Shown piece by piece: positions 18,568 to 41,136 of a stretch of DNA of 64,000 nucleotides; positions within the stretch are counted from its first letter, which is position 1, and every line of letters starts with the position of its first letter. The position numbers and the translations under genes were made by a program. The stretch is from a virus (lineage: Duplodnaviria > Caudoviricetes), in IMG/VR virus record IMGVR_UViG_2857089846_000001, positions 60,154 through 124,153 of that record; one strand, written 5' to 3'. The notes under the pieces were generated by a model. It made no database searches, was not told where the DNA came from, and worked only from the letters and a program-made list of their open reading frames with translations.

Positions 18568-18574
18568 GCGGCGA

Positions 18575-18601: not shown

Positions 18602-18868
18602 TCGGGCGCTGTTAGCGTCAGCCTGCCCACTCGTTTTGCGTTCCGTGCCCGGCTCGCCAAATTTGCAACGAGTTGGACAAGGAGCTAGACAGGAGGCGAG
18701 AGTCCGGTGTCCGATGGGCACGCTTTCACCAGCCCCGCCTTGGGGTGGGAGCACTTCGGGCGAATCCGACCGCCTAGAGACCGGTCGGGTTCGCCTGATC
18801 TGCTCACCCGCCGCGGTCGCATGCCGCCCTCCGTGCCCCCCAGGTACCTGCCGGTACGACCGTACTGC

Positions 18869-19720: not shown

Positions 19721-19937
19721 CCTCCACCACCGTCGTGTGCTCGCGCAGCAACGCGAGCACGGCGCCGGTGTCCGTGGGCTCCAGCGTGCGCCGGGGCCCG
19801 AGCGGACCGAGCAGCACCGGCTTCCCGGCGTGCTGCTCGACCAAGGCCCGCACGCGGCGGGAGCCGGTCACCGGCCACTGGCCGGTGACCTCCACGTCGT
19901 AGGCAGAGCCGTCATCCAGCGTGCCTATCACCCTCAT
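19710..19937 (-). CDS. Hypothetical protein directly downstream of the giant gene
   Basis: ATG 19937 after AGGAGA; MRVIGTLDDGSAYDVEVTGQW..., 75 aa. Confidence 0.7.
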   Translation of the reverse strand: MRVIGTLDDGSAYDVEVTGQWPVTGSRRVRALVEQHAGKPVLLGPLGPRRTLEPTDTGAVLALLREHTTVVEVRE

Positions 19938-19951
19938 ATCCGACTCTCCTT

Positions 19952-22900
19952 CTACCGGGTCGCGAGCAGTCCAAGGAGGAAGGCCCGCAGGTCGTCGTCC
20001 TCGTACCAGTCGCCGGAGAACAGCGTCCCCAGGCCGAGCGGCACGACGTCGCCCGTGTCGCCCTGCTCCGTGCGGTTGCGGAACAGCCTCGCCATCAGAA
20101 CGTCCACGGAGGTGCGGCGCCGCGCTCCCACCCGGCCGCTGTGGGTCCGGGTGAAGTGGAACGCCTCCTGCGCGGCCAGCAGATCCGGGTAGTGCTGCTG
20201 CAGGTGCGCGAGCAGGGCGTGCGCGGCCGTGCGGCGGCCGCCGTCCCCGAGGTCCGCGACGGTCGCGATCCGGCTGTCCGGGTCGTACCCGCCGGTGTCG
20301 CCGCCACGGGCCCCGATGAACCGGGAGTCGGCCGGCGTCAGCCAGTCGCGCGGCACGAACTGGGAGATGTCCGTGAGCGCGCGGACGGAGTCCCTGTCGC
20401 TGTCCGGGGTGGTCACCAGCGTTGCCGTGGTGCCCGGCCCCATCTCCCGGAGCTCGGCGAGGGTGTCGCGGACGGCGTCGGGGAGCGCCGCGGTGTACGC
20501 CTGCTGAAGGCGGGTGGCCTCCTGGCGCGCGGACTGCGCCTCGACGCGGGCCGCGGCGATCTCCAGGTCGGTGTCCGTGGCGCCTCCGGCCGCAGCCGCT
20601 TCCAGGTCGCGCAGGCGCCGCTCGGCCGCGTCGGCGTAGCCGGAGGCGTGCCGGACGTTGCCGTGCGGGTCGTCGCCGAGTTCCGGCGCCGCCGCGGCAA
20701 GCCGTGCAGCGACGTCGGTGTCCACGTCCTGCCCCGCTGCCCGTACGGCGGCCAAGTGGCGCAGAGCCTGCGGGCCCGGGCCGCCGTCCACGGCACGGTC
20801 CGGGGCCCAGCGAACGCCGTCCCGCACGGCCGGGAGCTGTCCGGCAGCCAGAGACGTCCGGCTCGCGGGGCGGTACCAGCGGGAGCGGCGCGAGACCTGA
20901 CCGAAGCGGCCCGGCGCCGGGAGCAGCCGCGCCCAGTGGGCGACACGGTCGCCGAGCGGAAGCCCGTCGCCGTGCTCGGGAAGGTCTGCGGCCGCGGCCA
21001 GGCGGCGCAGACGCCGGGTCTCCGGCCACGACTTGATGCGCTCCATGAGGTTGCGGCGGAAGCGAGCAAGGCGTTCCCGCAGACTCCGCGTTCCGTTCCG
21101 GCCGGCCCGCCACGCCTTCGCGACGACCCTCGCCAGCCACTTCAGCAGCGCCATGAGGAGGCTCAGGAGCTTCCGGGCGATGGCGACGAGCAGGGCGAGG
21201 GCATGAGCGAACACGCCCGGCCGGCGGCCCTCCGGTACCTGGGAGGCGATTCGGCGGGCCGTCTCCTCGCGGGTCGCTGCCAGCCGCGCGGCGAGCTGCG
21301 CGACGATCGCGGCGCGCCGCTCCTCGGTCAGCTCACCCCCACGGACCGCGTCCGCCAGGGCCTCGCCGACAGCGTCATCTACGTGCCGCAGCACAGCGCG
21401 ATCGACGCGGGAGTCACCATCGATGCTGTCGCCGTCACGGTCGTTGTCGGGCCGGTTGCGCAGGGCCTCCGGGATGAGTCGCAGCAGGTCGGCAGCGCGA
21501 GCGGCCAGCTCCTCTTCCGACTCTCCATCGCGCGGTTCGAGGTCGTTGACGGTGCGCAGGACCGCGCGGACAGCGTCCTGACGCGCACTGGCCGCCTCCG
21601 GGCGCAGGGAGCTCACCAGCTCATCGCGCTCGGTGTCATCGAGGTCCGCGCCGTCGATCACGTCGCGAGCCTCGTTGCGGACCCTGCTCATGGCCGACCG
21701 CAGCGACTCCGGGGTGAGCTGCGCGGCGATCTGCTCGCGAAGCTGGTGGATGCTGCCCGGCGTCGTCGTGCCCTGGATGGCGTTGTCGATGACGCCGCGC
21801 ACGACCGCGTCCCCGTAGTCGGCGCGAATCCGGTCTGCCGCGGAGGGGCGGCTGGCGTCCTGGTTGCCGTCCGCCGGCGGCAGGGCCGGGGTGGGTCGGT
21901 TCCGCTCGAACACGTTGACCTGCCGTCCGCTGTGCAGTGACAGGTCGTGCATGTTCCCGTCGCCGTCCATGACGGTCACCGACATCCACCATCCGTTGCG
22001 GTGGGGCGGGGCGACGACCGTCAGGCGACGGTGGTCGTTGAGCCGGTAGCCGGCACCGGAGAGGGGTGCGTCGATGACATCGCCGACGCGCAGCTGTCCG
22101 GCCTGCACACGGGCGACAGGAACGGCCGGAGCCGCCGGATCGGACGTGGCCGGGGTGTCGCCGTCGTCGTCCTGCGCTGCCGTGGCGTCCGAACTGGGCT
22201 CGGGAAGCTGGTACAGCGACTCTCCGGAGGCGAAGGTCCGCTTGAAGCGCAGCCCGTCCTCGTCCTCGATCATGAGCGTCCGCATGCCCCCAGGGGCTTC
22301 CTGGATCTGCACGACCCGGTACGCGGTCATCGTGTCCGGGTCGAACTCGTCCGGGAGCATGAGCGTGTCGCCGACACCGACGGCGCCGATGGTGCCCGGC
22401 TCCGGCCGGCCCGTACCACCGTCGGACTCGTTGCCCGCGGCGGCGTCCAGGTGGTCGGCAGCCCGCCGCGCGGCCCGGCCCTCCGAGGTTGAGGCGTCGG
22501 CGCCTTCCCGCAGCGCACCGGCGAGCGCCGAAGCCTGTCCGGCCGTGACCGGCAGGTCGTTGGCGATACGGGCCGCGGCCTGCTGCGCCTCGGGGTCGTC
22601 GGTCGGGACCTGCCCGCGGTCGGTGATCGCGTCGCGCTCCTCCGGCGAGAGGTCGGGGTTAACCGTCGGGCCGTTGACCGGGGCCACGGCCGGGGCCGGC
22701 TCGTGGGGCACGATCGGCTCGGGGCTCTCCGGCTCGTCCTCCGGCCCGAAGTCGGGGGCGCCTCCCTCCGCGTCCACCGCCCGCCGCATCGGCGCGTCGC
22801 TGGGCACCGAAAGCGAGCCGATGTCACCAGCAATGGGGTCCTGAGTGTCGAGCGTAGTCCGCGTCCCGGTGTGCCGGATGGAGGTGATCCTCCTGGGTCG

Positions 22901-25900
22901 GCCGTTGCGTGGCACGAGCAGGTCGCCTTCCTTCAGCTCACCTGCGGTGACCGATTCCACCCGGGCGACCTTCGGGGGGGCCTGGCCGTCGCCGTTGGAG
23001 GTATCGCCGACGACACGAAGGTCACCGATCGGCAGCTCCGCCATCCCTTGGGGGGCGGCGACGGTGGCAGTGTCGCCGTCCACATCTTCGACGGTGCCGA
23101 GCATGTTGCCGTCGCGGTCGCTCACGATGTTGCCGGGCCGCACCCGGTGCCCGCCGGTGGTCCAGCCGTCGGGCCGGGCCGCGCCGCCGTCGGTGACGTT
23201 GAGGGACGTCGGGGCGTGGTCGTCGTCGGTGCGGTCGTCACCGAACTGGACACGGACGCTGTTCGCGCTCGCGCCGGTGACTACGCCTTCGCGGCCGTCG
23301 TCGTTGGTGACGATCGCGCCCGGGAAGAGGCCGTTGGCGTTGCGGTCGGTGGGCACGCGGTCGGCGATGCGGCCGGTGAGGACATCCGAGTCCGCGCCGG
23401 TCTGCGGCGAGCCCTGGAACTGGTCGGCGTCGTCGCGGGTGGCGCGCGCGGCCGCGGCGTCCGGCCTGACCCACACCGGCTTGCCGTCGCGGCTGTCGGG
23501 GGCGTCAGCGATCAGGACGCGGTACATGTCCTGAAGGCGGCGAGCCTGCGTCGTCGGGATCGACTTCGGCCCGTCCACGACGTACCCGGCCAGGGTGCGA
23601 GCTGTTCCCCGCTTGGTGGTGCCGTCGACCCGTACGAGGTCGCCCAACGTGAGGTCGCTGACCTTGACCCACTCCGCGGGTCGGCCGCCGACCGGTTCCG
23701 GCGCGGCCGAGTCTGCGGGCGTGGTGTCACCCTCGCTGGCAGGCTCCTCGCCCTTCGGGCGGCCGCCCTGCGTCCTCTTCCCGGCGGAAGGGTCAGCTTC
23801 CTGCCGGTCGTCCTGGTCGGACGGCGCGTTGCTGCTGTCGCCCTCCGAGGACGGCGCGTTGTCCGCTGCGCCGCCTGCGGAGGTGGGCTGCGCTTCTTCC
23901 GCCCGGTCGCCGCTCTGGTCGCGGTCTGCTGCCGAGCCAGGCGCGGCGGGCGTGCCGGCGGGCTCACGGTCTGCCCCGTTGCCGCTACGGGCAGGGGCAG
24001 TATCGCGTGGCGCTTCGCCCTCTCGGCGACCGTAGCGGTGGTCATCGAAGGGCATGTTGACGTCTTCGGCGCGGGCGAGCACGAGTCCGCTGCCATCCAC
24101 GGGGATGACGAAGGTCTCTGTGTCGATGGCGTGCCGGGTGGCCTCCCACGGGTCACCGCCGACCGTGATACGCCAGGCCCTCTGTCGCTTCCCGTCGGTG
24201 GTGAGGGTGGCCTTCTGCGGCTCACCGATGACGTAGCCGGTGCGGGAGGCGGTCGCACCCGAGGAGCGGCCGCTGATCCTGCCGCTGAGGTGGACGATGT
24301 CCCCTTCGCGGATGTCGCCTGCGGGCACACGGTCGGCCCGGTCTCGTGCGCCGTCCGCGAGCAGATCGTTGAGGGCCTGGTGGGCGGCACGGTTCAGGCG
24401 AGCCTCGTGGTGCTGTGCGCGCGGGTCCTCCGGGCGCAGCACGTCCAGGTGCTTTCGGATCTCGTCGGCCAGCCACCCCGGGCCGTGGATGTTTGCCTCC
24501 TTGAGGCTGGTCGGCGGCTGCTTGTAGTGGGTGTTCAGCCAGCGCAGTTCGTCGTGCAGGCGGGCGAGGTCGTCGGCGACGTTGCCGCTCGGTGTCTCGC
24601 CGCGGCCCAGCGCGGCCAGCAGGTCGCGGAGCGCCTGGAGGCGTTCCATGTCCTCCGGGCGGTTCTCCAGAGACTCCAGGCCCCTGCGTCCGTCAAGGGC
24701 GCGACCGTCGTCCATGCTGCTCAGGTCCCGTGCAAGGTCCGGGTGGACGATGCTCAAGTCCGGCTCGCCCCGCTCCTTGTCCCGCAGGACAAGGTGGGCG
24801 ATGGCCGCTTCCCTGGTCGCGAAGTGCGGGCCGCTGGAGCCGAAGGGCAGCTCGCTCCACCACACCTCTGGGTCGCCGTCGGTGTGGTCGTTCCTGTAGC
24901 GGTGCGGAGCATTCAGGTTGCCGATCAGGCGGCCGTTGCGCCACACCTGTCCACTGCGGTCCGAGCGCATGAGCGGGCCGGGGACAAAGCCCTCCTCAGC
25001 GAGGGCCCGCATCTGCTCCGGAGAGCCGAACAGCGCACGCTCGCCTTCCTCGTTGATGACCCTGTCGCTGCCGCGGCTCTCGTACCGCTTCAGCTCCTCA
25101 GCCGTGGGAATGCGGCGGCCGTCGACACTGCCGGCGTGCTGCGGCCCGTGCACCGCGTTGCCCACGTACTGCGAGGGCTCCGCCGTCGCACCCGGTGCCG
25201 CGGTGTCCGCTCCCTGTTGCCCCTCGCCCTGCGTCGTGCCCTGGGCGCCGCCCACGGCTGCGGTGCCCGCCCGGCCGCGGCTGTCATCGCCGGGGCGCCG
25301 GGGCGCGGCGTCACCGCTCTCGGTGGTGCGGCCGGGCGCTGCCGGGGCGTCCGGTCCGGAGGCCTCCCGGCTTTCATCGCTGCGCAGGTCGATCATGTTC
25401 TGCCGGGCCCGCGCGACGGCACCGGCGAGCGGCATGCCGTCAGCGTCGCTCCAAGCGCGCATGCGCTCCGGGTCGAGCACGGGGCTGGTCCAGTCGATCA
25501 GCTCGCCGTCTGCGTCACGGAGCCCCTCGTAGGCGCCTGCGAGGCGACGGGCGCCCTCACGGCCGCCGATCGCATCGCCGCTGACCTCCCAGCCTTCCAG
25601 GTGCAGGCCGCTGGCCGCGTGCCCGAACCGCCAGGTGTCACCGGTGTTGGTCCAGGTGACGAGGCCACCGCCAGGAGACAGCGTGAGGCTGTCGTTGCTG
25701 GCGAGCCCACGCAGGTACTGGGCGTGCCTCTCCGGGTCGGCGCCGCTGGGTACTGGAGCCTCGCCGGAGCGGTACCGGTTCTTCAGTGCCTCCAGACGAC
25801 GTGGCTCGTCCTGGTTGCCCGAGGAGTCGCGGCCGTCGTCGTCATCGTCATCCCGGTTGCGGCCCGGGACGCGCGGAATGACCGGGCGTGCGCCGCCCGG

Positions 25901-28900
25901 AGTGTCGCCGCCGGACTCAGGCCGGTTGCGGTCACGGTCGCGACGCCGACGACGGTTACGGCGGCGCCGCTCGGCGTCCGCGTCGTCCTGCCCGTCCTGC
26001 CCGTCGTTCTCGTCGTTCTCGTCGTCGCGGCGGTTGCCCTCCTGCTCGTCGCGGCTCGCCGCGTCGTACGCGGCCACGAGTCCGGCCGTGGCGAGATCCT
26101 TGTCGCTCCACGTCCGGCGCTGACCGTCAGCGCTCTCAGCGTGGTAGTCCGTTGGGCTCTTCCCCCAGTCGTGGGCGATCCGGCCGACGTCCACTCCATC
26201 GACGCTGACGCTCCACTCCTTCTTGCTGCCGTCGTTCGCGACCTCGGCGACGTCAGCGCGGGCCACCAGAGCGGCCACGCGGTCGGGACCGCCGAGTTCA
26301 TACGTCTCGTGGTCCTTCGGCAGCCCCCAGTTGGTGAACACGTCCGTACGCGCCCGGTGCTGCGCCCTCTTGCGCACTGCCGGCTCGGGCTTCTCCACGA
26401 GTACGACCCACTCCTCGGCTCCCACCGTGTGGGAACCGCGGTCGGAGTCCAGTGAGACGGAGCGGATCTCGCCTTCGCGGCCATTCCGGTGCGTGTGGAT
26501 GACGTAGTGCGGCGGCTCCATCCCGTCAAAGACATCGGCCGTGCCTCGTCGCGCAGAGCTCACCGTGTGGAAGATGTGTCCCTCGCCGAGTTCGGAGCCT
26601 CGCACCCAGCGCATGCCCCTGGGCAGCTCTGCTTCACCGATGCGCAGCTCGCCGGTTCCCGATCGGGCATCGGCAGCGGGGATCATCGGCGCGCCGAGGC
26701 TCTCCCGCCGGCCGTTCTCCCAGTGCATGCCAGCCCAGTTGCCGCTGTCGTCCTGCGTGGCCCACCCGGCGAAGGCCGCCCAGTAGGCGCGAGCGTCCGC
26801 GACAGCGGCCTGGAGAGGGCGGAGGGCTTCGGGAAACTCGCCACGAATGCCGTAGGTCGTCTGGTCGGGGTTGTCGCCGCCGACGACGCTGACGAGGAAG
26901 TCCTCTGCTTGCTGCTCGGAAAGGCCGTGCTCTTCAGCCCCGACGCGGGCACGCGCGACCTGCTCGCGCACCAGCTCACGGACCTTCTGCGTCCTCTCCT
27001 CAGCGAGCTGGTTCCGAAGCTCCAGGGCCTTCTTCCGGCCGTTCCGGGTGGCGATGCGGTCGACCAGGAGGGGACGGAGGTCTGCGCGCAGCTCCTCGCC
27101 CGCCTTCTGCACGGAAGACCTCAGTTCCTCGACAAGGCCAGCGAGGTACTGGCGTGCTTCCTGCGGGACTTCTTCCAGGCTTCGCCGGGTGTTCTCGTCA
27201 TACTGCGCCGAGGGCTCGACATCGGCCATCGTGGAGATCCAGAACCGTACCTGCCAGGGGTCGGCCGTGGCCGTCCAGCCGTCGCCGTTGTGGGCGAGCG
27301 CCCGGTCGAGGTACACGTTGCGTACCCCGGCCGGCTGCGGCTCCGCCCACACACCGGCCCACTCTCGGATCGGTTCGGCGCGGCCGCTTCGATCACCGGG
27401 GAAGCTCAGCAGCGGCTTGCCGTGCTCGCCTGCGAGCGCGAGAGCCGCGGCGTGCCCGGGGTTGTCGAAGTCTCCCTGGCGGTACCACTGGTCACCGACG
27501 GAGCCGTACAGGTCGTGGTCGGCGCGCCAGGCGTCCCCTCCGGTCCACTCCGCATCGCTGTGCAGGAGGGAGCCGATCCGCTCTCCGTCGAGGTAGACGG
27601 AGCGCCGGACCTCGTCCCTCTGGAAACGGCTCTCGGCGGGGATGGTCTGGACTTCGCCGACTTCCACGGGCTTGCCGTTGTGCTCGCCGACCTTCTCGCG
27701 GATCTCCTCCGGGCCGTTCCCGACTTCGGTGTCGGCTGCCTGAGCGGCGTCCGGCGCCGGTGCGTCGCCGCGCCGGCTGAACGGGTCGGGCTCGCCGGGC
27801 GGGGGCATGGTCGCGGAGGCTTCCAGCCCGCGGGCCTGCCAGCGCACGCCTTGGGCCAGACGCCGGTACAGCTTCTCGCGGCGGCGGCCGTCCGCGGTGC
27901 TCAGGTCGAGAGCGTCGGCCTCTTGGTCGATGGCGTCGGCTGCGTACCGCATCTGGTTCGCCGACACGGGCCCGCTGTAGTAGTTGTTGGCCACGTGCCG
28001 CAGGTCCGCGTCGTCGCCGTTTGCCCATCGCTTGGCGAGATCCCCGAGCTCACGGAACTGGGCCTTGGTCAGCAGCGTGCCGAGGATTTCGCCGCGCATG
28101 TCCTCCGGGCGGGTCACGCCACGGCCGTGGGAAGGGTCGACGTTGGAATCCGCTTGGTAGGCGGCTGACCAAGCTGCCCCCTTGATGGAGCGGTACAGGC
28201 CGTTCTCGCCGGTGCCCTCGGAAATCGCAGCCGCAGGCGTCCTCGGGCCGCCGCCGCGGGCATCCTGCGCCTTCCAGGTGGATGCACCCTTGGGGCCTCG
28301 GGCCCGAATCCAGGCGACCATCTCGCCGTCCCGCATGATGGCGCCGTGGCCGGCGTCCACGTCGAGGTTGGCCAGCCGGTAGCCGTCCATGCTTTCGATC
28401 GGAGCACCTTCGCTGGTGGCAGCAGCGGCCAGCCACGCGTTCTCTCGCTCACGCTTCGCGCCGGCTTCCGCCTTCCTGTCCAGCTCGGCGGCCGACGCGT
28501 CCTGGCCAGGCCGGCGCAGCTCGGCGAGGGCGATCGGGCGCATCCCGGAGTCGGTGTCGACCAGAGCGAAGCCGTTGTCGGCTATGTGCCGGATGGCGCC
28601 TGCCCCGTGCTGCGGGGTGAGCACCTGGTCCCCCTCGCCCCACGAGCTGGTGTCGGCGTCCGGGGCGTTGTCCGGCTTCGGCGCAGGCGTGGGCGCATCC
28701 GGCGCGTTCGTCTCATCGGAGGGTGCAGGCAGCTTCTTCGGAAGTGTGAGGCCTTGGAACTTGGCGGATTTCCTCACGTCACGACGGCGAAGCGCTTCCT
28801 CGGCGAGCTGCCGCGACTCCTCAGTCTCGTCCAGGACGACGAGCTGCCGGGGGTCGTAGCCGAGGTTGACTCCCCCGATCGTGGCCAGGTGAGCGGTGTA

Positions 28901-34900: not shown

Positions 34901-37900
34901 GATGGAGTTGAAGGCGTCGTGCGTGAGGACGACCACGTCCCAGTCGCCGCCTGCGATCTTCGCGATGAACTTGCGGCGCTTCTTGTGGTGCAGGTCCTTC
35001 CGGGAGATCGCGAGAACCTTCGCGCCCGGGTAGAGCTGGACGGCCTCGCGGGAGAACTGCTCCAGCATGTGGTTGGGCACCACGATCGCCGGCTTGGACG
35101 CCAGGCCGGTGCGGCGCAGCTCCATGGCGCCGCCGACCATCGTGGCGGTCTTGCCGGCGCCCACGACGTGGCCGAGGAGGGTGGTGGGCTCTTGCGTGAT
35201 GCGTCGGATGGCCGCGTTCTGGTGCGGCCGCATCTGCCAGCCGGTCTTCACCCCGGGCAGGGTCAGCGGCGTCTCGTCGTAGTCGCGGAGGGCGATGGAG
35301 TTGAACTTGTCGTTGTAGATGCGGCCCAGGCGCTCAGCGCGCTGCTGGTCGGCCATCACCCACTTGTTGAACTCCTTGGCCATCTCCTTGGCCTTGTTGC
35401 GGGCCGCAGAGGTCGCCTTCTGGTTGACGTACGTCTTGGTGGAGCCGTCGGGGAGCTTCTGGCTCTCGGTGATGGTGATGAGCTTCTGGTGCAGCAGCGA
35501 GTCGAACAGCTCGTAGGCGTTGCGGCCCTTGACGCCCCACACGGTCCGGGCGATCTCGCCCTTGTCGCTGCCGTCCACGGCCCACCGGTTGCCGCCGAAG
35601 TGGGTCACGCTGGCGTCGGACAGGCCGAGGTGGCGCAGGAAGCCTTCGTAGACGTCGATCGGCACCCACGGTGCGCCGATCTTCACGCGGATGTCGGCGG
35701 CGCGGATGTCGCGGGGCACGACCCGCTCCAGGGCGGCGACGTTGACCGCGTACTTGGGGTCCTCGGCGGCCGCAGCGCGGGCCTCGGCGAGTTTCTGCCG
35801 TACGTTGCCCGACAGGTAGGCCGCTCGGGACTCCAGCCGGCCGGTGGCCGGGTCATCGAAGGCGAGGTCTGCGAGGGCTTCGCGGGCCGCGTCCTGGTCC
35901 ATGCCGAGCAGCCGGGCGACGGTCGGCAGCTCCAGGCGGCCGCCGTCCTGCTCCAGCGCGATTGCGACGGCGTCTTCGGGGGTGTCAGCGCGGTCGGGGA
36001 TCTCCCGGGGCTGGAGAACGCGCTCGGTGAGGATGTTCAGCTTGCGGGGGGCCTTGGCGTCCGCGTCCCACCGGTCGAGGCCGAACACCATGTGCCCGTC
36101 CGGGTCCTCTTCGAACAGCGCCAGGGCCGTGGGGAGCTTCCACTCGTCCGGTACCTCCTTGAGGCCTTCGGCCTTGCGGCGCGCCAGGGCCTCCGGGGGC
36201 GAGAACTGGCGGCGCTGGCCCGGCTTGTTCGGGGAGGGGTGCTTGCGTACGTAGGCGTCGTAGGCGCGGTTCAGAGCCGCGCGTGCCTCGCGCATCTCGT
36301 TGGTCTCGCCGGTCTGCCGGGTGGAGGCTTCCAGCTCGATGAGCCGGTTGGAGAGCCCTTTGAGTTCCAGCAGGCGGCCCAGCTGGGCGCGCTGTCCGGG
36401 GTGGACGTCGAGCTCGACCCAGTTGCCGTCCTCGACGGTCATGAACGAGTCGCCCTCGCCGCGGGCGATCGTGCCGTCGCGGGCGTCGCCGGCCAGGTTC
36501 AGTGAGAGGGCGGCGTTCTGCTGGGAGGCGTCGTAGCCCTTCCCGTCGGACTTGGCGTCGGCCGCGATCCGGCCGAGGGCGGCACGCAGGGACACGAGGG
36601 TGTTGCTGTCACCCCTGACGGTGAGGTCGTGGTCGGTGAACTGGCCCCGGCCGACCGCCAGCTGTCCGAGGATGTTCTTGGGGTTCTGCTGGAAGTAGTC
36701 GTTGACCGCGTGCTCGTGGCCGTCGATGTTCGTCTTGCTGGCCGTCAGCCAGGAGTCGTCGCCCCGGCCGTGCCTGTACTCCGACGGCTCACGGCGTCGG
36801 AACAGCAGCAGGTCGGTCACGACGTGGGTGCCGGCTGCTCGCTGGTGTGCGCCCTCGGGCAGACGCACCGCGCCCACCAGGTCGGCCATGTCGTACATGG
36901 CGCGGCGGGCCGAGTCGTCCTCGGAGTCCATGGTGTACCGGGAGGTGACCAGGGCGACGTATCCGCCCGGCCGGACCCGGGCGAGGGACTTGAGGATGAA
37001 GTGGTCGTGGATCGAGTGGTGCCGGCCGGGGTTGTCCAGGGGGTCGTGCAGCTTGTACTTGCCGAACGGCACGTTGCCGACGGCCAGGTCGAAGCTGTCG
37101 GGCGGCAGGCGCAGATCCTGGAAGGGCTGGTTGATGATCTGCGCGTCCGGATAGAGCAGCTGCGAGATCGCGGCCGAGGTCGGGTCGAGCTCGATGCCGA
37201 CCATCTCGGCGCCGTCGGGGGCGTGCCCGATGAAGTTGCCGGAGCCGGAACCCGGCTCCAGGACCCGGCCACGGCGGAATCCGAGGGAACGCAGCGCGTC
37301 CCACACCGGCTGGATGAGAGCGGCATCCGTGTAGTGGGCGTTGAGGGTGTTCTTGCGGGCTGCGGCCCATTCCTTGTCGTCCAGCAGCGCGCGGACCTCG
37401 GCGCGCTCCTCCGCGAAGGACTCCCACCGCTTCAGGGCACGGGCGTAAGCCTCGGGGTTCGGCTGCCCGTCCTCGTCGCGGAACCGCTTGTCTTGCGGGT
37501 TGGGCTTGTCGGAGAGGACGACGGGCAGCGCACCCCAGCCCGACCAGCGGGCGAGGATCTGCTGCTCCTCCTCGGTCGCCGGCCGGTTCTCCGCCTGGAT
37601 GCGGCGCAGCGTCTGGACGGCGGCGACGTTCGCCTTCGCCTTCCCCCGCTCGCCGGACGGTGCGAGGTCCTCCTGAGATCCCGGCCGGAACCGGGGGGCG
37701 TCTACGTCTGCGGCAGCGTCTCGCCCAGCTCCAGGTGCTCCGTCCCGGGCTCCTTCGGCAGGAACACTTCCTCGTTCAGCACGATCTCCGTCGCCTGATT
37801 GCGCGCCTGCATCCGCGACGCCATCACGTCCTGCGTCGTCTCCTGCGGCAGATCGCGAAGCAGCTGCTCGGCGAGATCGCCGATTCGGACGAGCACCCGG

Positions 37901-40900
37901 TTCCCGAGCGTCTCGAAGAACGCCGTCTGCTCCGCCTCGCTGCCCAGGGACTTCAGGGCTGCCGGACGGTACGTCTCCCAGTGCCTCCGGGCCTGCCTGC
38001 CGTACTTGTTCACTGCGATCTGCTCCTGTGTCGGCCGGCTGCTGGCTCGGCTGGTCGCGGGTGGGCTTGTCATCAGGCTTGCGCTCTGCGAGGCGCGCTT
38101 CGGCGCCCATGAGATTGTTGCGGGCCTCGGCGAGCTCGTTGAGCCAGTACCGCTTGGAACTCTCGTCCAGGCCGTCCTGGCGGCCGCGGATGGCCTGCTC
38201 GACCTCGGCCAGGATCTCACCGAGGTCGGCGGCGCTGTCGGCTTCGCCGTCGCGGACGGCGTCGATGAGGGCTCGGGCCCGCTCGATCTGGCCGCTGGAT
38301 GTCTCGTCGTCCTGGAGGGTGCCGCGCTGCGCGAGGATCATTTGGTCGAGGACGATGTCCAGCTCGGCGGCGGCGATGTTGCGCTGCTGCGACCGCGGCC
38401 GGTCCTCGCCGCTGGTGCTGCTGGCGCTGTCCGGGGAGGGCGTGCCCTCCGCTTCGGCACGCTCCTGGTCTGCGTCGATGGCCTCGCGGATGACGTTGCG
38501 CGCGTTGCCGATCCGCTCTCGCAGGTAGTTGCGCTCACTGGCCGGGAGCTTCCGCTGGCGCGCGGTCTCCCGGTCCAGCTCTTCGAGGGCGGAGTCGAAC
38601 TGCTTCAGCCGGTGCTGAATCTCGTCGTCGTCGGCGACCTCAGCTGCGGAGAGCATGCGGACGAGCGGCCCTCCACGTGGCGCGTCGTCCATGCTCTGGG
38701 CGGCGCCGGCCCAGGTGAACGCCTCGTTCATGGCGGCCCGGGCCGCGTCCATCCGGCTCTGCGGCTTCTCCGTCCTCTCCTCATCGCCGGTGTCGGCGGC
38801 GGCTGTCTGGGGCGAGTCCGCAGCGTCCGGCTGGGCAGCCTGCTCGGGGGCCGCGGACGCGGCCTGACGTTCGGCTTCCTCCTGGTCGCGGCGGCGGTTG
38901 TACTGGACGGCGGCGAGGCCGTCGTTCGCGCCGCGCTCGCTGTCGAACCGGCCCGCGAGGTGCCAGATCGCCTTCCCGGACCGCTGGCCGTCCTTGTCGC
39001 GGAACTCGCTGAGCTCGGTGTTCAGCCGGGGGCCGCCCCAGTCGACGGTCCGGCCGTCTTCATGGCGCAGGTTGCTGGCCAGGAACAGGGTGAACCGGTC
39101 GGCGGTGTCGCGGTCTGCGAATTTTCCGTAGGAGTGGATGCCGCGGGTGCCGAGCCCAGACAGGGAGCGGCCGGTGCCGGAGGCCCGCACCTCGAAGCGG
39201 AACTCGTCGTCGCGGTTGGTGCGCTCGATGATGGCGAACCCGCGGTGGTCGGCCAGGTGGAGCTTGATGGTGGGGTCGCTGGCGAGCCTCCGCATGACGT
39301 CGCGCTGCGATTCGGGGACGTCGTCGCTGCCGCCGCGCTTCCAGAACTCGCGCAGCTCCTCGTTGTTCTGCGGCCGGCCCCGCTCGTCCCCGAACGTCGA
39401 TGCGCCGACGTGCCCGACGGCGATGCTCGAGGCGGGGGCGCCGGACTGTTCGGCGATCTGCTGGGCTGCGCGGGCCTGCGGGGTGTCCAGCTGCTCCGGG
39501 GTGGCTGGGGCGGGCTGAGTGCGGGAGGTCGCGCTCTCCCGCTTCTTCGCCGCTCGGTCGGCAAAGGCCTGCCGGGACTCGCCGGAGAGACGGCGGGCCA
39601 GGTCCATGCCCTGAGAGGTGTTGAAGACGTCGAACGCGTTCGGGTCGTCCCAGTCGATCAGCTTGCCGTCGAGTTCCGCGGTCTCCATCCGGTTGGCGAA
39701 GTCCAGCGCTTCGGCCTTGCGCGAGGTGGTGACCATGCGCATGCCGGTGTCGTTGTGGATGACGGCCCAGCCGTACGGGCCGTCCGTGGGCTTCTTGGCG
39801 GGGAGCTTGCCGATGGTGAAGTGCCCGTTGCGGGAGAGCTGCGGCTTGTCGAGCTGGTCCATCAGCTCGGGCATGGCCGCGTTGTGCTTCTGCTGCGCAT
39901 CCTCGCTCTTGCTGAACGGCCGCAGCTGGCCACCGGCCCAGTGGGCGCGTACGTCGTCCAGGGTCTTGAAGCGCCGGTTGGGGTCCCGGCGGCGCTGCGG
40001 CTTGGCTGCCACAGCCTTCTTGGCGGGCTTGATGGCCTGCGGCTCCCACGCATTGCCGTGGGTGCGGTTCGCGCGCGGGCGAGGGATGGGCTTGTTGCCG
40101 TGGGCCTCGAAGCGGGTGTGTGCCAGCTCAAGGGCGTCGGCCAGCGTGGCGGCGGCCTCGGCGATGTCGTCCTTCCCGGCTTCCTCAGCGCGCCGGGCAA
40201 GATCGTCGGCCGATTCCGCGAGGAACGGCAGGTCGTCGATCTCGGCCGGGTTCACCTGGTCGTTCGGGTCCGCGTTGACCTGGATCGCGGAGGACAGTTC
40301 GCGGCTCAGATCCTCGTATGCGGAGCGGGCGTCATCGTCGTCCCAGTCGTCATCCCACGCCTGGTCGAGCGGCTGCATGTAGTCGCTGACGAGCTCTTCG
40401 GTGGCCGCTTGGGCATGGTCGCTGTCGGTGAACCGCCGGCGGCGCTCGTCACCCTTCGCCTTGGGCCCAGGGGCGCGGAGCGCGCTTCCCTGGCCGTGAC
40501 GGTGCCGAGCCCTGCTGCGCCCCAGGCCTCCGGAGATGGGCAGTGCGTCGAACCTGGCCGTCTGGGGGTTCTCCTCGTCGGCCTGGCCGTCCTGGAAGAC
40601 ACGGCCGCGAGGAAGTACAGGGTCATCGTCCTCGGGCTCGGGCCCTTCGCCGAGGTCTACGCCCTCGACGTCCTCCCCGATGTCCTCGCCCTCGTCGTCC
40701 TTGTCGTGCGGGTCGTCGGGGGTGTCGCCCTGGTCGCCCTCGTCGTCATCGTCAGCGCGGCCCGTGCCGCGCCGCGGGTCGGCGGTACGGCGCTCGTCCT
40801 CGTCGCGGACCTTCTTCTTGCTCTTGGTCGGCTTGCTGCCGTCGGGGCGGGCGACCATCGTCAGCCGGGAGGCGTGGACGGTGGACCTCTCGCGGGTGGC

Positions 40901-41101
40901 CACGTTCTCTACGAGGACGTTCCGGCCGCCGAGGGCACGCACGACGCGCGCCATGCCGCCGCCCCACAAACGCGCGATGCCGCCGGTCTCAATGAATCGG
41001 CCCTTGGAGTCCCGGGGGTGCAGATCAGGGTTCCAGGGGCGGCGGGTCCGCTTCGCTTCGAGGCGGGCGGCGATACGGTCAGCGGCGTTCGTGATCTGCA
41101 T
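19952..41101 (-). CDS. Giant polyvalent protein (~7049 aa): DarB-like N6-adenine MTase + SNF2 helicase, UvrD-like SF1 helicase, repeated domains
   Basis: Uninterrupted 21-kb ORF. MTase: VLEPGSGSGNF, GNVPF (~37.3-37.0 kb). SNF2: VGAGKT, VDEAH, ATGTP, QRDGRVERQGN (~35.2-33.6 kb). SF1: AGTGKS, DEAQD, GDSNQAIYGFRGA, TQSFRFG, TAHKAKGLE, YVAVTRA (~31.5-29.8 kb). Start could be 41101-41119. Confidence 0.9.
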   Translation of the reverse strand: MQITNAADRIAARLEAKRTRRPWNPDLHPRDSKGRFIETGGIARLWGGGMARVVRALGGRNVLVENVATRERSTVHASRLTMVARPDGSKPTKSKKKVRDEDERRTADPRRGTGRADDDDEGDQGDTPDDPHDKDDEGEDIGEDVEGVDLGEGPEPEDDDPVLPRGRVFQDGQADEENPQTARFDALPISGGLGRSRARHRHGQGSALRAPGPKAKGDERRRRFTDSDHAQAATEELVSDYMQPLDQAWDDDWDDDDARSAYEDLSRELSSAIQVNADPNDQVNPAEIDDLPFLAESADDLARRAEEAGKDDIAEAAATLADALELAHTRFEAHGNKPIPRPRANRTHGNAWEPQAIKPAKKAVAAKPQRRRDPNRRFKTLDDVRAHWAGGQLRPFSKSEDAQQKHNAAMPELMDQLDKPQLSRNGHFTIGKLPAKKPTDGPYGWAVIHNDTGMRMVTTSRKAEALDFANRMETAELDGKLIDWDDPNAFDVFNTSQGMDLARRLSGESRQAFADRAAKKRESATSRTQPAPATPEQLDTPQARAAQQIAEQSGAPASSIAVGHVGASTFGDERGRPQNNEELREFWKRGGSDDVPESQRDVMRRLASDPTIKLHLADHRGFAIIERTNRDDEFRFEVRASGTGRSLSGLGTRGIHSYGKFADRDTADRFTLFLASNLRHEDGRTVDWGGPRLNTELSEFRDKDGQRSGKAIWHLAGRFDSERGANDGLAAVQYNRRRDQEEAERQAASAAPEQAAQPDAADSPQTAAADTGDEERTEKPQSRMDAARAAMNEAFTWAGAAQSMDDAPRGGPLVRMLSAAEVADDDEIQHRLKQFDSALEELDRETARQRKLPASERNYLRERIGNARNVIREAIDADQERAEAEGTPSPDSASSTSGEDRPRSQQRNIAAAELDIVLDQMILAQRGTLQDDETSSGQIERARALIDAVRDGEADSAADLGEILAEVEQAIRGRQDGLDESSKRYWLNELAEARNNLMGAEARLAERKPDDKPTRDQPSQQPADTGADRSEQVRQAGPEALGDVPSGSPEVPGQRGGADGVLRDAREPGARPNRRSRRAAASRSAAGDDAGRDGVADAGAQSGDGDRAERGSVPAEGARDGAPGAGRDAAADVDAPRFRPGSQEDLAPSGERGKAKANVAAVQTLRRIQAENRPATEEEQQILARWSGWGALPVVLSDKPNPQDKRFRDEDGQPNPEAYARALKRWESFAEERAEVRALLDDKEWAAARKNTLNAHYTDAALIQPVWDALRSLGFRRGRVLEPGSGSGNFIGHAPDGAEMVGIELDPTSAAISQLLYPDAQIINQPFQDLRLPPDSFDLAVGNVPFGKYKLHDPLDNPGRHHSIHDHFILKSLARVRPGGYVALVTSRYTMDSEDDSARRAMYDMADLVGAVRLPEGAHQRAAGTHVVTDLLLFRRREPSEYRHGRGDDSWLTASKTNIDGHEHAVNDYFQQNPKNILGQLAVGRGQFTDHDLTVRGDSNTLVSLRAALGRIAADAKSDGKGYDASQQNAALSLNLAGDARDGTIARGEGDSFMTVEDGNWVELDVHPGQRAQLGRLLELKGLSNRLIELEASTRQTGETNEMREARAALNRAYDAYVRKHPSPNKPGQRRQFSPPEALARRKAEGLKEVPDEWKLPTALALFEEDPDGHMVFGLDRWDADAKAPRKLNILTERVLQPREIPDRADTPEDAVAIALEQDGGRLELPTVARLLGMDQDAAREALADLAFDDPATGRLESRAAYLSGNVRQKLAEARAAAAEDPKYAVNVAALERVVPRDIRAADIRVKIGAPWVPIDVYEGFLRHLGLSDASVTHFGGNRWAVDGSDKGEIARTVWGVKGRNAYELFDSLLHQKLITITESQKLPDGSTKTYVNQKATSAARNKAKEMAKEFNKWVMADQQRAERLGRIYNDKFNSIALRDYDETPLTLPGVKTGWQMRPHQNAAIRRITQEPTTLLGHVVGAGKTATMVGGAMELRRTGLASKPAIVVPNHMLEQFSREAVQLYPGAKVLAISRKDLHHKKRRKFIAKIAGGDWDVVVLTHDAFNSIPMTPKTQQAYMDKELALLRSQIEKIKARDGDDPSLKQMEQTLANQEEKLKERLETLKDERGIFFENTGIDYLFVDEAHEYKNLRTVSNLPGAAISGSSQATQLHMALGYLREHNASGRVASLATGTPIANSVTEAYVLMRYLAPHILEEAGIDDFDSWAATFGEVVTSLELAADGSGDYREKARFARFFNVPELLLGYRTFADIQTAADLNLPTPPVRAGENGRRGEVIAIPSSVEQRRYVQSLQDEDWIREPGGILKAIGFASRAAIDMRLQGGSGHEGGKLEAAAEQIARIYEEHKDTVYPVSTKDATPQELPGSLQLVFLDEGTPGSTGKIKFDAYEAMRDELVAAGVPREKVRFIHEAKDDKAKAKLFEEARNGKIAVLIGSTQKMGTGTNVQDRAVALHHLSFPWRPADMAQRDGRVERQGNLNVPGVDGTPDDVRIMYYITEGTFDEFRLGTLERKAVFINQMARRDFNAREMEDIGDDAVSMGTFKAIASGNPAIAERALAQGELVDLQRQNADWYEQQQERRDRIARLDGRIESLERALPEMREALAQRQDVSGDNFQATIGGVSYDSRADAAQDLGQRMADIAKDTRHRDGATVPLGEIGGVNFLAEVEYDADGNRMVRLRLDHAPSYTNAATPDTRGLWSARKINDTSGRGAIQSLENLLKSLDADIEKRQKELDQARVTKREAESHLEEGQSPFEEQVASTERRVQALTEMVMHHQEAKKLRERIHEAGEKADPGLRKRLKEVEEETRVLKALADQERARTFKPAPEKPKRAETAQQPAPQQAAVREDGRPRPSSLSESELDSELSSIEEAINQGTADDAAVDRHARLTTERARRARSQPADSTTAEQREGEAASPRGPETGEGTVTLDPAKVRSELNGLAEEGTSDESAGSPGETGTTTTSETSEPTTKAPETEEQPAESAPTPAPTQGTGSRDEAPASGRQAPADRPREASPRAAGEDSQQQPAAGSRPERSSPAGRPTPQPSATDMDDEQLADAIGDLEEELSGFADSTDRLDLARRRRMEQRLFELQEEERRRWTPEPEYDDNGKLVERSRGSVVRDRLEGYGLNNAEVEDLVTRVEDLPAAKPGGYSDEEWERIDAAAAANESYPPTDEQDIIIQGAARRGLNMAVMALAGTGKSSTLKMLSHRMPGKKIVYLAFNRSVAAEAREAQARGEYAKNMLASTANAYAARVADRRLNDRLPSNKKGGFKKLNAQQIADRMRWYDTVRAGGRELSPGGAATVAERMLQQWAKSADAEMGPQHVNAKTEEERRDLFNAVKPLADRMWANLTDPEAGDPERDLTMDFDYIVKQWALGGYKLDADTLFWDEAQDVNPVMEGVVRAALDQGVQVVAVGDSNQAIYGFRGASDALTRLPVDARATLTQSFRFGPAVADVGNRFLRLLGTRMRLRGYDRKDSHLGQLQPGEESMVIARTNAGVALAAVQSLAAGRTVAVSGGVKALQEFVLAARALAAGENTDHAELARFNGMAYDDILEEVKTDPDLQQLASLFSLLEKHGDDIDLLLSSGARPAETELVGDRVWVRMDWNDPEAAGLREWFRSHRTNGVGRITYDANTKRFYYQAGKRTESFTKNGRTINYQVDNKLSLEEAKERIDAHLARVYPQTETEEGRGRLVPEHEKHDVLVTTAHKAKGLESERVRIADDFTGPEETDDGNIDWDTIPDDEALRVAYVAVTRATEVLDPGSLGWVFRAVRDDDPTQPPKGEYRRDFELGDFQPGDEIDFQEEDGTPNIGVVSEIDPPVLSVLSTSDEPGVGGKRQEIGPAQVQRRNGQGRPLLDVASDEELDAVLGEDTARAARESQPNADSAAAPQSEEPTGSPAVPAPAADIITGDQVPPGPGATPYELEKYRRRFNIRYKVGYYVDYRNDDGETVTARVVKTTGNPILRDDAGHEFRADPDWYADRFIAVRADDGSPLPRPTWADTLPEGFRAVSPEEIQPGHAIREGSWADLLWGKRFVMATGTGEDGSTRLYTAHLATIGGVNLGYDPRQLVVLDETEESRQLAEEALRRRDVRKSAKFQGLTLPKKLPAPSDETNAPDAPTPAPKPDNAPDADTSSWGEGDQVLTPQHGAGAIRHIADNGFALVDTDSGMRPIALAELRRPGQDASAAELDRKAEAGAKRERENAWLAAAATSEGAPIESMDGYRLANLDVDAGHGAIMRDGEMVAWIRARGPKGASTWKAQDARGGGPRTPAAAISEGTGENGLYRSIKGAAWSAAYQADSNVDPSHGRGVTRPEDMRGEILGTLLTKAQFRELGDLAKRWANGDDADLRHVANNYYSGPVSANQMRYAADAIDQEADALDLSTADGRRREKLYRRLAQGVRWQARGLEASATMPPPGEPDPFSRRGDAPAPDAAQAADTEVGNGPEEIREKVGEHNGKPVEVGEVQTIPAESRFQRDEVRRSVYLDGERIGSLLHSDAEWTGGDAWRADHDLYGSVGDQWYRQGDFDNPGHAAALALAGEHGKPLLSFPGDRSGRAEPIREWAGVWAEPQPAGVRNVYLDRALAHNGDGWTATADPWQVRFWISTMADVEPSAQYDENTRRSLEEVPQEARQYLAGLVEELRSSVQKAGEELRADLRPLLVDRIATRNGRKKALELRNQLAEERTQKVRELVREQVARARVGAEEHGLSEQQAEDFLVSVVGGDNPDQTTYGIRGEFPEALRPLQAAVADARAYWAAFAGWATQDDSGNWAGMHWENGRRESLGAPMIPAADARSGTGELRIGEAELPRGMRWVRGSELGEGHIFHTVSSARRGTADVFDGMEPPHYVIHTHRNGREGEIRSVSLDSDRGSHTVGAEEWVVLVEKPEPAVRKRAQHRARTDVFTNWGLPKDHETYELGGPDRVAALVARADVAEVANDGSKKEWSVSVDGVDVGRIAHDWGKSPTDYHAESADGQRRTWSDKDLATAGLVAAYDAASRDEQEGNRRDDENDENDGQDGQDDADAERRRRNRRRRRDRDRNRPESGGDTPGGARPVIPRVPGRNRDDDDDDGRDSSGNQDEPRRLEALKNRYRSGEAPVPSGADPERHAQYLRGLASNDSLTLSPGGGLVTWTNTGDTWRFGHAASGLHLEGWEVSGDAIGGREGARRLAGAYEGLRDADGELIDWTSPVLDPERMRAWSDADGMPLAGAVARARQNMIDLRSDESREASGPDAPAAPGRTTESGDAAPRRPGDDSRGRAGTAAVGGAQGTTQGEGQQGADTAAPGATAEPSQYVGNAVHGPQHAGSVDGRRIPTAEELKRYESRGSDRVINEEGERALFGSPEQMRALAEEGFVPGPLMRSDRSGQVWRNGRLIGNLNAPHRYRNDHTDGDPEVWWSELPFGSSGPHFATREAAIAHLVLRDKERGEPDLSIVHPDLARDLSSMDDGRALDGRRGLESLENRPEDMERLQALRDLLAALGRGETPSGNVADDLARLHDELRWLNTHYKQPPTSLKEANIHGPGWLADEIRKHLDVLRPEDPRAQHHEARLNRAAHQALNDLLADGARDRADRVPAGDIREGDIVHLSGRISGRSSGATASRTGYVIGEPQKATLTTDGKRQRAWRITVGGDPWEATRHAIDTETFVIPVDGSGLVLARAEDVNMPFDDHRYGRREGEAPRDTAPARSGNGADREPAGTPAAPGSAADRDQSGDRAEEAQPTSAGGAADNAPSSEGDSSNAPSDQDDRQEADPSAGKRTQGGRPKGEEPASEGDTTPADSAAPEPVGGRPAEWVKVSDLTLGDLVRVDGTTKRGTARTLAGYVVDGPKSIPTTQARRLQDMYRVLIADAPDSRDGKPVWVRPDAAAARATRDDADQFQGSPQTGADSDVLTGRIADRVPTDRNANGLFPGAIVTNDDGREGVVTGASANSVRVQFGDDRTDDDHAPTSLNVTDGGAARPDGWTTGGHRVRPGNIVSDRDGNMLGTVEDVDGDTATVAAPQGMAELPIGDLRVVGDTSNGDGQAPPKVARVESVTAGELKEGDLLVPRNGRPRRITSIRHTGTRTTLDTQDPIAGDIGSLSVPSDAPMRRAVDAEGGAPDFGPEDEPESPEPIVPHEPAPAVAPVNGPTVNPDLSPEERDAITDRGQVPTDDPEAQQAAARIANDLPVTAGQASALAGALREGADASTSEGRAARRAADHLDAAAGNESDGGTGRPEPGTIGAVGVGDTLMLPDEFDPDTMTAYRVVQIQEAPGGMRTLMIEDEDGLRFKRTFASGESLYQLPEPSSDATAAQDDDGDTPATSDPAAPAVPVARVQAGQLRVGDVIDAPLSGAGYRLNDHRRLTVVAPPHRNGWWMSVTVMDGDGNMHDLSLHSGRQVNVFERNRPTPALPPADGNQDASRPSAADRIRADYGDAVVRGVIDNAIQGTTTPGSIHQLREQIAAQLTPESLRSAMSRVRNEARDVIDGADLDDTERDELVSSLRPEAASARQDAVRAVLRTVNDLEPRDGESEEELAARAADLLRLIPEALRNRPDNDRDGDSIDGDSRVDRAVLRHVDDAVGEALADAVRGGELTEERRAAIVAQLAARLAATREETARRIASQVPEGRRPGVFAHALALLVAIARKLLSLLMALLKWLARVVAKAWRAGRNGTRSLRERLARFRRNLMERIKSWPETRRLRRLAAAADLPEHGDGLPLGDRVAHWARLLPAPGRFGQVSRRSRWYRPASRTSLAAGQLPAVRDGVRWAPDRAVDGGPGPQALRHLAAVRAAGQDVDTDVAARLAAAAPELGDDPHGNVRHASGYADAAERRLRDLEAAAAGGATDTDLEIAAARVEAQSARQEATRLQQAYTAALPDAVRDTLAELREMGPGTTATLVTTPDSDRDSVRALTDISQFVPRDWLTPADSRFIGARGGDTGGYDPDSRIATVADLGDGGRRTAAHALLAHLQQHYPDLLAAQEAFHFTRTHSGRVGARRRTSVDVLMARLFRNRTEQGDTGDVVPLGLGTLFSGDWYEDDDLRAFLLGLLATR
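37702..38013 (-). CDS. TnpV-like small protein nested in an alternative frame of the giant gene
   Basis: GTG after CAGGAG; MNKYGRQARRHWETYRPAAL...AFFETLG...MQARNQATEIVLNEEVF, 103 aa with globular composition. Confidence 0.7.
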   Translation of the reverse strand: MNKYGRQARRHWETYRPAALKSLGSEAEQTAFFETLGNRVLVRIGDLAEQLLRDLPQETTQDVMASRMQARNQATEIVLNEEVFLPKEPGTEHLELGETLPQT

Positions 41102-41108
41102 GCGGCGG

Positions 41109-41136
41109 ACCATGCACACCCGAGGTGGTTAACGTC
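41109..41136 (-). promoter_or_regulatory. Putative leaderless promoter GACGTTAA-N14-CATGGT-CCGCCGC-ATG
   Basis: Shared architecture, upstream of the giant gene. Confidence 0.6.

Follow-up and report, generated by a model that had tools for sequence, protein, structure and literature searches.

The window analysed here is a stretch of 64,000 nucleotides (nt), about 70% G+C, from IMG/VR virus record IMGVR_UViG_2857089846_000001 (positions 60,154 to 124,153 of that record); it corresponds to positions 7,083,769-7,147,768 of a single 7,289,495-bp contig. It holds the head gene block of an element related to Streptomyces phage Gilgamesh (MN234216, 129,136 bp, isolated on S. lividans JI 1326), and on the minus strand within that block lies one giant open reading frame (ORF; 19952..41119), 7055 codons long from its GTG start, whose product is almost certainly a DarB-like polyvalent phage protein. 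Upstream of it is the gene for a portal protein of 806 amino acids (aa) that ends in a MuF domain (41407..43827, minus strand; Pfam Phage_portal, E=5.8e-48; Phage_Mu_F at residues 700-797; phrog_2662), and downstream is that for a 659-aa fusion of an S78 prohead protease and a 2H phosphoesterase (15947..17926, minus strand; Pfam and PHROGs). This is the placement, between portal and protease, that had been proposed in an earlier reading made from the sequence alone (hereafter the sequence-only reading), and it is kept in the isolated phage: gene order in Gilgamesh is identical from gp46 to gp53, with the giant counterpart gp48 (4624 aa) annotated as a hypothetical protein.

Alternative starts for the giant ORF lie at M3 and M7, and its translated N-terminus reads ...LEAKRTRRPWNPDLHPRDSKGRF. 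The database copy of the protein starts at M7 (7049 aa), in agreement with the end coordinate of 41101 given in the sequence-only reading. A whole-genome search found a stop-free frame of 7058 codons at the gene. G+C content at third codon positions is 0.89 overall, and at least 0.82 in every 300-codon window but one (0.73). The earlier description as a single 21-kb ORF was thus borne out, the frame being free of stops, coding in character throughout and intact in its catalytic motifs (below). Self-BLAST revealed no internal repeats in the protein. Among 708 scored candidates, 39 relatives of 4598-7520 aa were identified; annotated homologues of 5247 and 6289 aa reside on two complete Streptomyces plasmids, and one relative is the protein of the isolated phage. 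Pfam entries PF28553, PF28554 and PF28555 are assigned to this family in the database. Because such long relatives exist on complete plasmids and in a phage isolate, the assembly fusion that the sequence-only reading had allowed for is ruled out on sequence comparison. The giant gene appears to be split or interrupted at two related loci (L017 and L055), where the frame bearing the conserved N-terminal module described below closes at 1215 and 1441 aa, respectively, and coding for the methyltransferase and SNF2 helicase goes on further downstream in the same orientation. In line with a split giant gene, the 7.46 Mb contig of L055 also encodes a C-terminal protein of 2385 aa.

Pfam domains on the giant protein comprise a methyltransferase (residues ~1280-1405), ResIII/SNF2 (1962-2233), Helicase_C (2427-2499), UvrD-N (~3212-3452) and UvrD-C (~3722-3782). 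The region of the DarB-type N6-adenine methyltransferase (MTase) spans residues ~1190-1450 (36770..37552, minus strand) and bears SGWGA, LEPGSGSGNF (motif I, at residue 1287) and GNVPF (motif IV, at 1348). The SNF2-type helicase follows at residues ~1960-2560 (33440..35242, minus strand), with VGAGKT, VDEAHEYKN, TGTPI and QRDGRVERQG; its motifs I, II, III and VI are all present, and ResIII, SNF2-rel_dom and Helicase_C score above the Pfam cut-offs. A helicase of the UvrD/superfamily 1 type lies at residues ~3200-3790 (29750..31522, minus strand; ALAGTGKS, WDEAQD, TAHKAKGLE; phrog_1967), with PF00580 at 52.8 bits (cut-off 23) and PF13361 at 23.5 bits, just under its cut-off of 25.6. The nearest solved structure for this UvrD module, by PDB sequence search, is that of F-box DNA helicase 1 (FBH1, E=1.6e-23), and orthology to cellular UvrD, PcrA or Rep is excluded by NCBIfam equivalog scores that fall far below their cut-offs. 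Every catalytic motif checked is therefore in place alongside the Pfam domains, as the sequence-only reading had stated for the MTase, SNF2 and UvrD-like motifs. Among the 40 family members, 38-39 carry the MTase and SNF2 motifs and 15 those of UvrD; strict conservation of the MTase and SNF2 motifs wherever this dyad is present argues for selection on enzyme activity. The gene has the make-up of a polyvalent protein, with two or more effector domains in one ORF beside portal, protease and capsid genes. Pfam, run on the giant protein in three pieces, gave no Phage_Mu_F match for any of them.

The central part is homologous to DarB of phage P1. The PHROGs profile phrog_10089, "DarB-like antirestriction", matches residues 822-2894 (E=0, 1163.9 bits) over positions 1332-3302 of its 4647, i.e. 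only the central third of the profile, and also matches the next piece of the giant protein (2.5e-78). With the MTase-SNF2 part (1331 aa) as tblastn query, 140 phage records were hit, and for 78 of these the match spanned 80% or more of the query. Giants of the Bcep22 type, annotated "DarB-like antirestriction", "PLxRFG protein" or "structural protein", matched the full 1331-aa query at 33-35% identity, and P1 darB matched it at 27% identity (E=1e-20). Pairwise alignment showed residues ~1190-2900 to be colinear with P1 DarB, the MTase coming first and two helicase blocks after it: the MTase aligns with P1 DarB residues 87-278 (32% identity, E=9e-26, sharing motif IV as GNVPFG), and the helicase lobes align with residues 666-1190 and 1423-1576 (24-32% identity). 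The DarB-like character claimed for the protein thus holds for its core. About 80 aa before motif I there is a nearly invariant SGWG(A) in the window and the family, which may correspond to the GxG[GAS] motif of LPD36, a helical domain N-terminal to the MTase (Iyer 2017).

The N-terminus has no part in this homology and carries a module of its own (residues ~27-98; 40826..41041, minus strand), in which an HPRD-GRF peptide is followed by a five-stranded KOW/Tudor-like barrel ending in RPDGSxPT. The unit is ~75 aa long and can be written as W-x-x-x-x-HPRD-x-x-GRFIETG, then the β-rich part to RPDGSxPT. Its core, HPRDSKGRF (residues 34-42; 40994..41020, minus strand), is found in 39 of 40 family members, and H34, P35, R36, D37, G40, R41, E44, G46 and V59 are invariant. 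AlphaFold2 models residues 30-110 at a predicted local distance difference test score (pLDDT) of 94-98, with the five-stranded barrel after the peptide. Fold searches with this module matched only generic Tudor, KOW and PWWP domains (best E=0.023 in PDB and 1.2e-3 in BFVD), the BFVD matches including Gordonia phage entries named "ADP-ribosyltransferase" and "structural protein". The module occurs once in the giant protein, as counted with a hidden Markov model of it, once in the window and once in the genome; among 400 other species genomes sampled in the genus, 13 have it, and among isolated phages tblastn found it only in Gilgamesh (two records of that phage).

A HMMER search (phmmer) with residues 1-100 returned 174 proteins at E<=1e-3, 63 of them at E<=1e-10. 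Of the 150 matches listed among these 174, 144 have a strict HPR..G.F-type motif and 128 have its first copy within the first 120 residues, in proteins of 86-7217 aa. In a set of ten mid-sized proteins that start with the full module, eight lack any Pfam match; a Zeta toxin domain is found in one of the other two and a sub-threshold RyR match in the last. A minority of the module matches carry 4-8 internal copies of the form W/F-x-E-x-L-HPRD-E-x-G-R-F between domains, each followed by a Gly/Ser-rich stretch. Six such multi-copy proteins were scanned with Pfam (P0096, P0104, P0116, P0147, P0160 and P0177): a MuF domain is found in two (P0104 and P0160), an ADP-ribosyltransferase domain in three (P0104, P0160 and P0177), a Zeta toxin domain in P0104 and NUDIX in P0147, while P0116 gave only a sub-threshold hydrolase match and P0096 none. 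In both P0160 and P0104 a copy of the motif lies 17-27 residues past the MuF domain. In the window, the portal protein has MuF as its last domain, and the next large gene, the giant one, begins with the motif. The sequence-only reading had described HPR..G.F motifs as recurrent in head-associated phage proteins; this proved right for polyvalent proteins of the MuF type, but not for the MuF and 2H proteins of the window itself, which lack the motif, since HPR..G.F occurs in a single real reading frame there, that of the giant gene.

We mapped the giant protein by BLAST against its 39 relatives, i.e. 38 database proteins and Gilgamesh gp48. Residues 1-150 are found in 33-39 of the 39 and residues 1050-2900 in 38; coverage falls to 14 relatives for residues 3100-3900 and to two for 3950-4100, and returns to 35-38 for residues 5750-7055. 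The last 760 aa are strongly conserved in 40 of 40 sequences. Gilgamesh gp48 (L003:13979-27853) shares with the giant protein only residues 17-185 (52% identity) and 5760-7055 (44%); the ~3100 residues between its shared ends are entirely uncharacterised, and gp48 as a whole has no Pfam or PHROG match at all. We also took a census of cargo at 70 related loci, covering ~3400 aa after the start at each. MTase and SNF2 together are encoded at 48 loci (six of which add UvrD), UvrD without the dyad at three, and none of the three modules at 19, some of these last being short or interrupted. With conserved ends and a variable middle, the gene is best described as a frame with exchangeable cargo, in three layers: a lineage-wide N-terminal module, the variable cargo, and a lineage-wide C-terminal part of ~1300 aa.

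This conserved C-terminal frame (residues ~5760-7055; 19955..23842, minus strand), common to gp48, consists of tandem KOW/SH3-like barrels followed by long helices. It contains a single strongly hydrophobic, amphipathic helix (residues ~6635-6662; 21134..21217, minus strand), and in all seven proteins sampled, gp48 included, the 19-mer of highest hydrophobicity is 402-415 residues away from the C-terminus. The model built for the last 1196 aa averages a pLDDT of 63.7, with values below 50 in the last ~80 residues. Its confident blocks comprise small β-barrels, four to five in number (model residues ~60-270 and 390-440), and long helices (model residues 568-850 and 924-1030, pLDDT 80-90). Foldseek related this model only to tandem KOW arrays (Spt5, E=1.5e-4) and to eIF5A N-domains. 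For the last 636 aa, the only Atlas leads, all below 0.9, were a 'DdrB domain protein' and Phage_min_cap2 in 14% of one cluster, and a search for longer proteins with the same segment gave nine matches of 1688-3047 aa, none with a Pfam domain and several of them partial. Between enzymes and frame, residues ~3900-5750 (23870..29422, minus strand) are variably present among relatives and have no family, PDB or Atlas match. By database, the last 2455 aa drew a blank in Pfam and PHROGs, residues 3900-5860 and the DarB part had no match by PDB sequence search, residues 4131-5760 no usable match in Atlas, and the uncharacterised regions nothing useful in NCBIfam; taken together, these searches left the last ~3200 aa and residues ~130-1100 without a match.

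The position of the gene is conserved as well. At 67 of the 70 loci, which come from eight genera of actinomycetes, a homologous portal gene precedes the start of the module-bearing ORF by 40-3800 nt on the same strand; portal identity across the 70 loci is 50-87%. In the window, an 81-aa ORF with two hydrophobic helices (41165..41410, minus strand; sub-threshold DUF7427 match) overlaps the portal stop codon, in a position matching that of the Gilgamesh 'membrane protein' gp47, and is separated from the co-oriented giant gene by ~45-63 nt. The sequence-only reading had placed a virion promoter motif here, which we could not confirm: apart from the shortness of this gap, a sigma-70 scan of 40900-44200 gave 0 sites, and 14-mers of the upstream stretch, allowing up to two mismatches, recur in the window only as GC-rich near-matches within coding DNA.

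Beyond the giant gene, a 77-aa ORF (19710..19943, minus strand) starts 8 nt past its stop, and relatives have a small gene at the same position. Two small overlapping ORFs on the plus strand (19218-19475 and 19472-19720) come before the protease, the first with a sub-threshold CopG-antitoxin match (E=0.007). The pair resembles an inserted toxin-antitoxin-like pair, and a plasmid relative likewise has two small plus-strand ORFs there. Next is a 221-aa ORF without a family match (17995..18660, minus strand), very acidic in the C-terminal half of its product, for which a scaffold-like role is a guess. The S78-2H fusion has ~280 further residues without assigned function, and its Gilgamesh counterpart is annotated only as 'hydrolase'; such a capsid-loaded S78 protease may carry an RNA-end or nucleotide-processing enzyme into the head. 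The block continues on the minus strand with a major capsid protein of the HK97 type (14469..15866; 465 aa, of which the Pfam match covers residues 247-459 only), just after it a 479-aa homologue of the phrog_284 'exonuclease' (12875-14314; a metallophosphoesterase is annotated there in Gilgamesh), and the tape measure protein (237-4295).

ORFs of Gilgamesh are colinear, in circularly permuted order, with ~7,022,500-7,147,500 of the contig. A perfect 279-bp direct repeat lies outside the window at 7,021,856-7,022,134 and 7,151,814-7,152,092, defining a unit of 129,958 bp. From this colinearity and the flanking repeat, the ~130 kb element in this genome looks like an integrated prophage. There is no tRNA gene at either end. 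The repeat is long for an attachment core, and could alternatively have originated by a single crossover between a plasmid form and the chromosome. Relatives are mostly found on contigs of 120-138 kb, circular and linear plasmids included, and Gilgamesh encodes ParA, ParB, an FtsK-like protein (gp10) and two tyrosine integrases, which together indicate a temperate phage that is often a plasmid. The giant gene thus belongs to a Gilgamesh-like lineage of temperate Streptomyces siphophages, usually a plasmid of ~130 kb and here apparently integrated in the chromosome, in contrast to the plasmid state that the sequence-only reading had mentioned. The window encodes a 402-aa tyrosine integrase (53717-54925, minus strand) and a 674-aa FtsK/SpoIIIE-family protein (61137-63161, plus strand). 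Because this family is the type of translocase used in Streptomyces plasmid transfer, the element may be mobile in two forms, phage and plasmid. The prophage also contains a class I lanthipeptide gene set immediately upstream of the head block (45926-51777, minus strand), with a LanC cyclase (45926-47668), a LanB dehydratase (47071-50160) and a PCMT-type methyltransferase (50422-51777), all on that strand. Among plasmid relatives, the region upstream of the portal encodes 7-deazaguanine synthesis in one and a Mur ligase, Ddl and a C39 peptidase in another.

Several known systems resemble this gene in part. P1 DarB (2255 aa) has the same adenine-MTase (GNVPFG) followed by an SNF2 helicase, and darB likewise adjoins portal (prt) and head-processing (pro) genes. 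DarB is reported to be a virion protein that protects incoming DNA from type I restriction, and its first 30 residues to be enough for a reporter to enter capsids (PMC9024508). The giant protein differs in being three times longer, with ~1100 aa before the MTase, ~3200 aa after the helicases and an extra UvrD helicase, and it comes from a siphophage of a Gram-positive actinomycete host. The giants of Bcep22-like podophages (JC1 gp69, Bcep22 gp75) give the best profile match and are also encoded in a morphogenesis module, though at its end and not directly after the portal as here; the 4515-aa JC1 gp69 was detected in CsCl-purified virions with 51 unique peptides by mass spectrometry (PMC9144972), and a UvrD module is not among the features reported for these proteins in the accounts consulted. 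Iyer 2017 (PMC5512222) describes the MTase-SNF2 dyad as a theme of polyvalent proteins, proposed to track along and protect injected DNA, and predicts capsid packaging for those encoded by phages. The proteins treated there, including one of 12,242 aa from a Streptomyces viridifaciens plasmid, share with ours the many effector domains and the MTase-SNF2 dyad, to which LPD36 is joined in that paper. The second helicase class that the sequence-only reading had singled out is indeed present, but the joint occurrence of SNF2 and UvrD in giant Streptomyces and other actinomycete proteins is already in that paper, which places the UvrD-bearing Streptomyces giants in conjugation-like contexts; ours, in contrast, lies in a phage head block and has a relative in an isolated phage. 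With the MuF polymorphic and polyvalent toxins of temperate phages the giant protein has in common the W-x-E-x-L-HPRD-E-x-G-R-F motif, present in their linkers in 4-8 copies, but it has no MuF domain, and its single motif is fused to a barrel that the linker copies lack.

DarB-like polyvalent giants, their virion association and the SNF2-UvrD pairing in Streptomyces were therefore known. In the literature searched we did not find in print the HPRD-GRF/KOW module, its kinship with the linker motif of MuF and ADP-ribosyltransferase proteins, the C-terminal frame, the exchange of cargo in one slot after portal-MuF, or the phage context of the Streptomyces giants. In the main text of Iyer 2017 neither the N-terminal module nor the linker motif nor the C-terminal frame is described, though the supplements of that paper may list them; the HPRD-GRF motif is likewise absent from the main texts of the MuF-toxin paper (PMC5576092) and of those returned by a literature search. 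The literature search found no paper on Gilgamesh.

The explanation that we favour, and consider slightly better than evenly likely, is that the giant protein is a packaged and injected anti-restriction protein; all three properties we infer by analogy with its relatives. It would be made late, together with the head proteins, and be recruited into the prohead through its N-terminal module, much as P1 DarB and T4 internal proteins are directed to the capsid by N-terminal signals. The giant protein would then leave the capsid with the DNA, and in the new cell, following the proposal made for DarB, the MTase-SNF2 pair would track along the incoming molecule and shield it in cis from restriction. 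The UvrD module would contribute another motor, with DNA ends, nicks or bound host proteins as its targets. The conserved C-terminal part can only be guessed to anchor the protein in the head or to serve its exit through tail and membrane. As to the N-terminal module itself, a loading function is plausible by the same analogy, at somewhat less than an even chance.

A number of observations weigh against this explanation. About 3200 of the 7055 residues are without assignable function, and the PDB fold matches of the N-terminal barrel are generic and non-significant. The first 120 aa do not align with the first 120 aa of P1 DarB even at E<=100, so that the N-terminus is unrelated and has its own conserved module in place of a P1-like targeting signal. 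The linkage to the portal in 67 of 70 loci amounts to conservation and not to independent recurrence, because the loci form one phage lineage. Both the FtsK/SpoIIIE-type translocase encoded by the element and the conjugation-like contexts given in Iyer 2017 point in another direction. Lastly, gp48 keeps the frame without a recognisable enzyme, so the conserved role of the gene may be structural and not anti-defence.

This last point is the core of an alternative that overlaps with packaged anti-restriction and puts the selected function elsewhere, in head building or in DNA delivery across the Streptomyces envelope: the frame would be that of an internal head, pilot or ejection protein, with the enzymes as optional passengers. 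The retention of the frame in 33-39 of the 39 relatives while cargo varies, the frame-only gp48, the 19 of 70 loci without any of the three enzyme modules in the part covered, the long C-terminal helices with their one conserved hydrophobic helix, and a slot between portal and protease that is a common site for minor head protein genes all agree with it. We nevertheless regard it as unlikely: no likeness in fold or sequence to a known ejection, tape-measure or internal head protein emerged, Foldseek returning only KOW-like barrels and Atlas only its sub-0.9 leads, some of the 19 loci are short or truncated, and the MTase and SNF2 motifs are strictly conserved wherever the dyad occurs. A little less probable still is a cytoplasmic enzyme, made late or in the prophage or plasmid state, that methylates and remodels the replicating DNA of the element ahead of packaging, or aids plasmid maintenance. 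MTase, SNF2 and UvrD by themselves would fit DNA modification or repair, and the lineage is plasmid-borne in many strains, with ParA and ParB in Gilgamesh; such an enzyme is hard to reconcile with the tight head-operon placement, 45-63 nt after a gene that overlaps the portal stop and kept across eight genera, with the reported virion location of the nearest characterised homologues, P1 DarB and JC1 gp69, or with an N-terminal module common to proteins of unrelated cargo. Iyer et al. (PMC5512222) read the UvrD-bearing actinomycete giants in terms of conjugation, and here the protein might accordingly escort DNA during Streptomyces-type conjugative transfer of the plasmid form, the FtsK/SpoIIIE-family protein of the window (gp10 in Gilgamesh) being the candidate translocase. 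We think this very improbable, as the giant gene is embedded in the virion morphogenesis block with the translocase gene more than 20 kb away in the window, and Gilgamesh was isolated as a phage. FtsK-like transfer of double-stranded DNA in Streptomyces is, moreover, not known to carry escort proteins. Finally, an artefact, whether an assembly fusion of several genes or a decaying pseudogene, has in its favour the extreme length and the interrupted relatives at L017 and L055, and is scarcely credible against 39 full-length relatives, a uniform coding signal, the lack of stops and intact catalytic motifs.

Packaged anti-restriction can be extended into a joint reading of the module, the frame and the linker motif, which we offer as a tentative possibility, well short of probable. 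In actinobacterial phages, the HPRD-GRF peptide, here fused to a KOW-like barrel, would act as a transferable signal for head loading or processing, and together with the C-terminal ~1300 aa would make up a giant delivery chassis in which effectors (the DarB dyad, UvrD, gp48-like cargo) are swapped by lineage. The linker copies in MuF, ADP-ribosyltransferase and Zeta proteins would then mark docking to the portal-MuF ring or sites of cutting within the head.

How proteins are chosen for head loading and injection is known in few models, e.g. T4 internal proteins, P1 DarB and the N4 virion RNA polymerase. The present lineage is useful in this respect for its conserved and confidently folding N-terminal module, its natural cargo swaps and a plaque-forming relative, Gilgamesh, on S. 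lividans. Should the module turn out to direct head loading, the recurrence of HPRD-GRF linkers in actinophage polyvalent proteins would be accounted for, and there would be a handle for putting proteins into Streptomyces phage particles; otherwise the gene remains a large and well-documented representative of the DarB-like proteins. In either case its phage context corrects the reading of UvrD-bearing Streptomyces giants as conjugative, as that reading is set out in the main text of Iyer 2017. If the chassis reading is true, no protein larger than this one would be known to pass through a phage tail.

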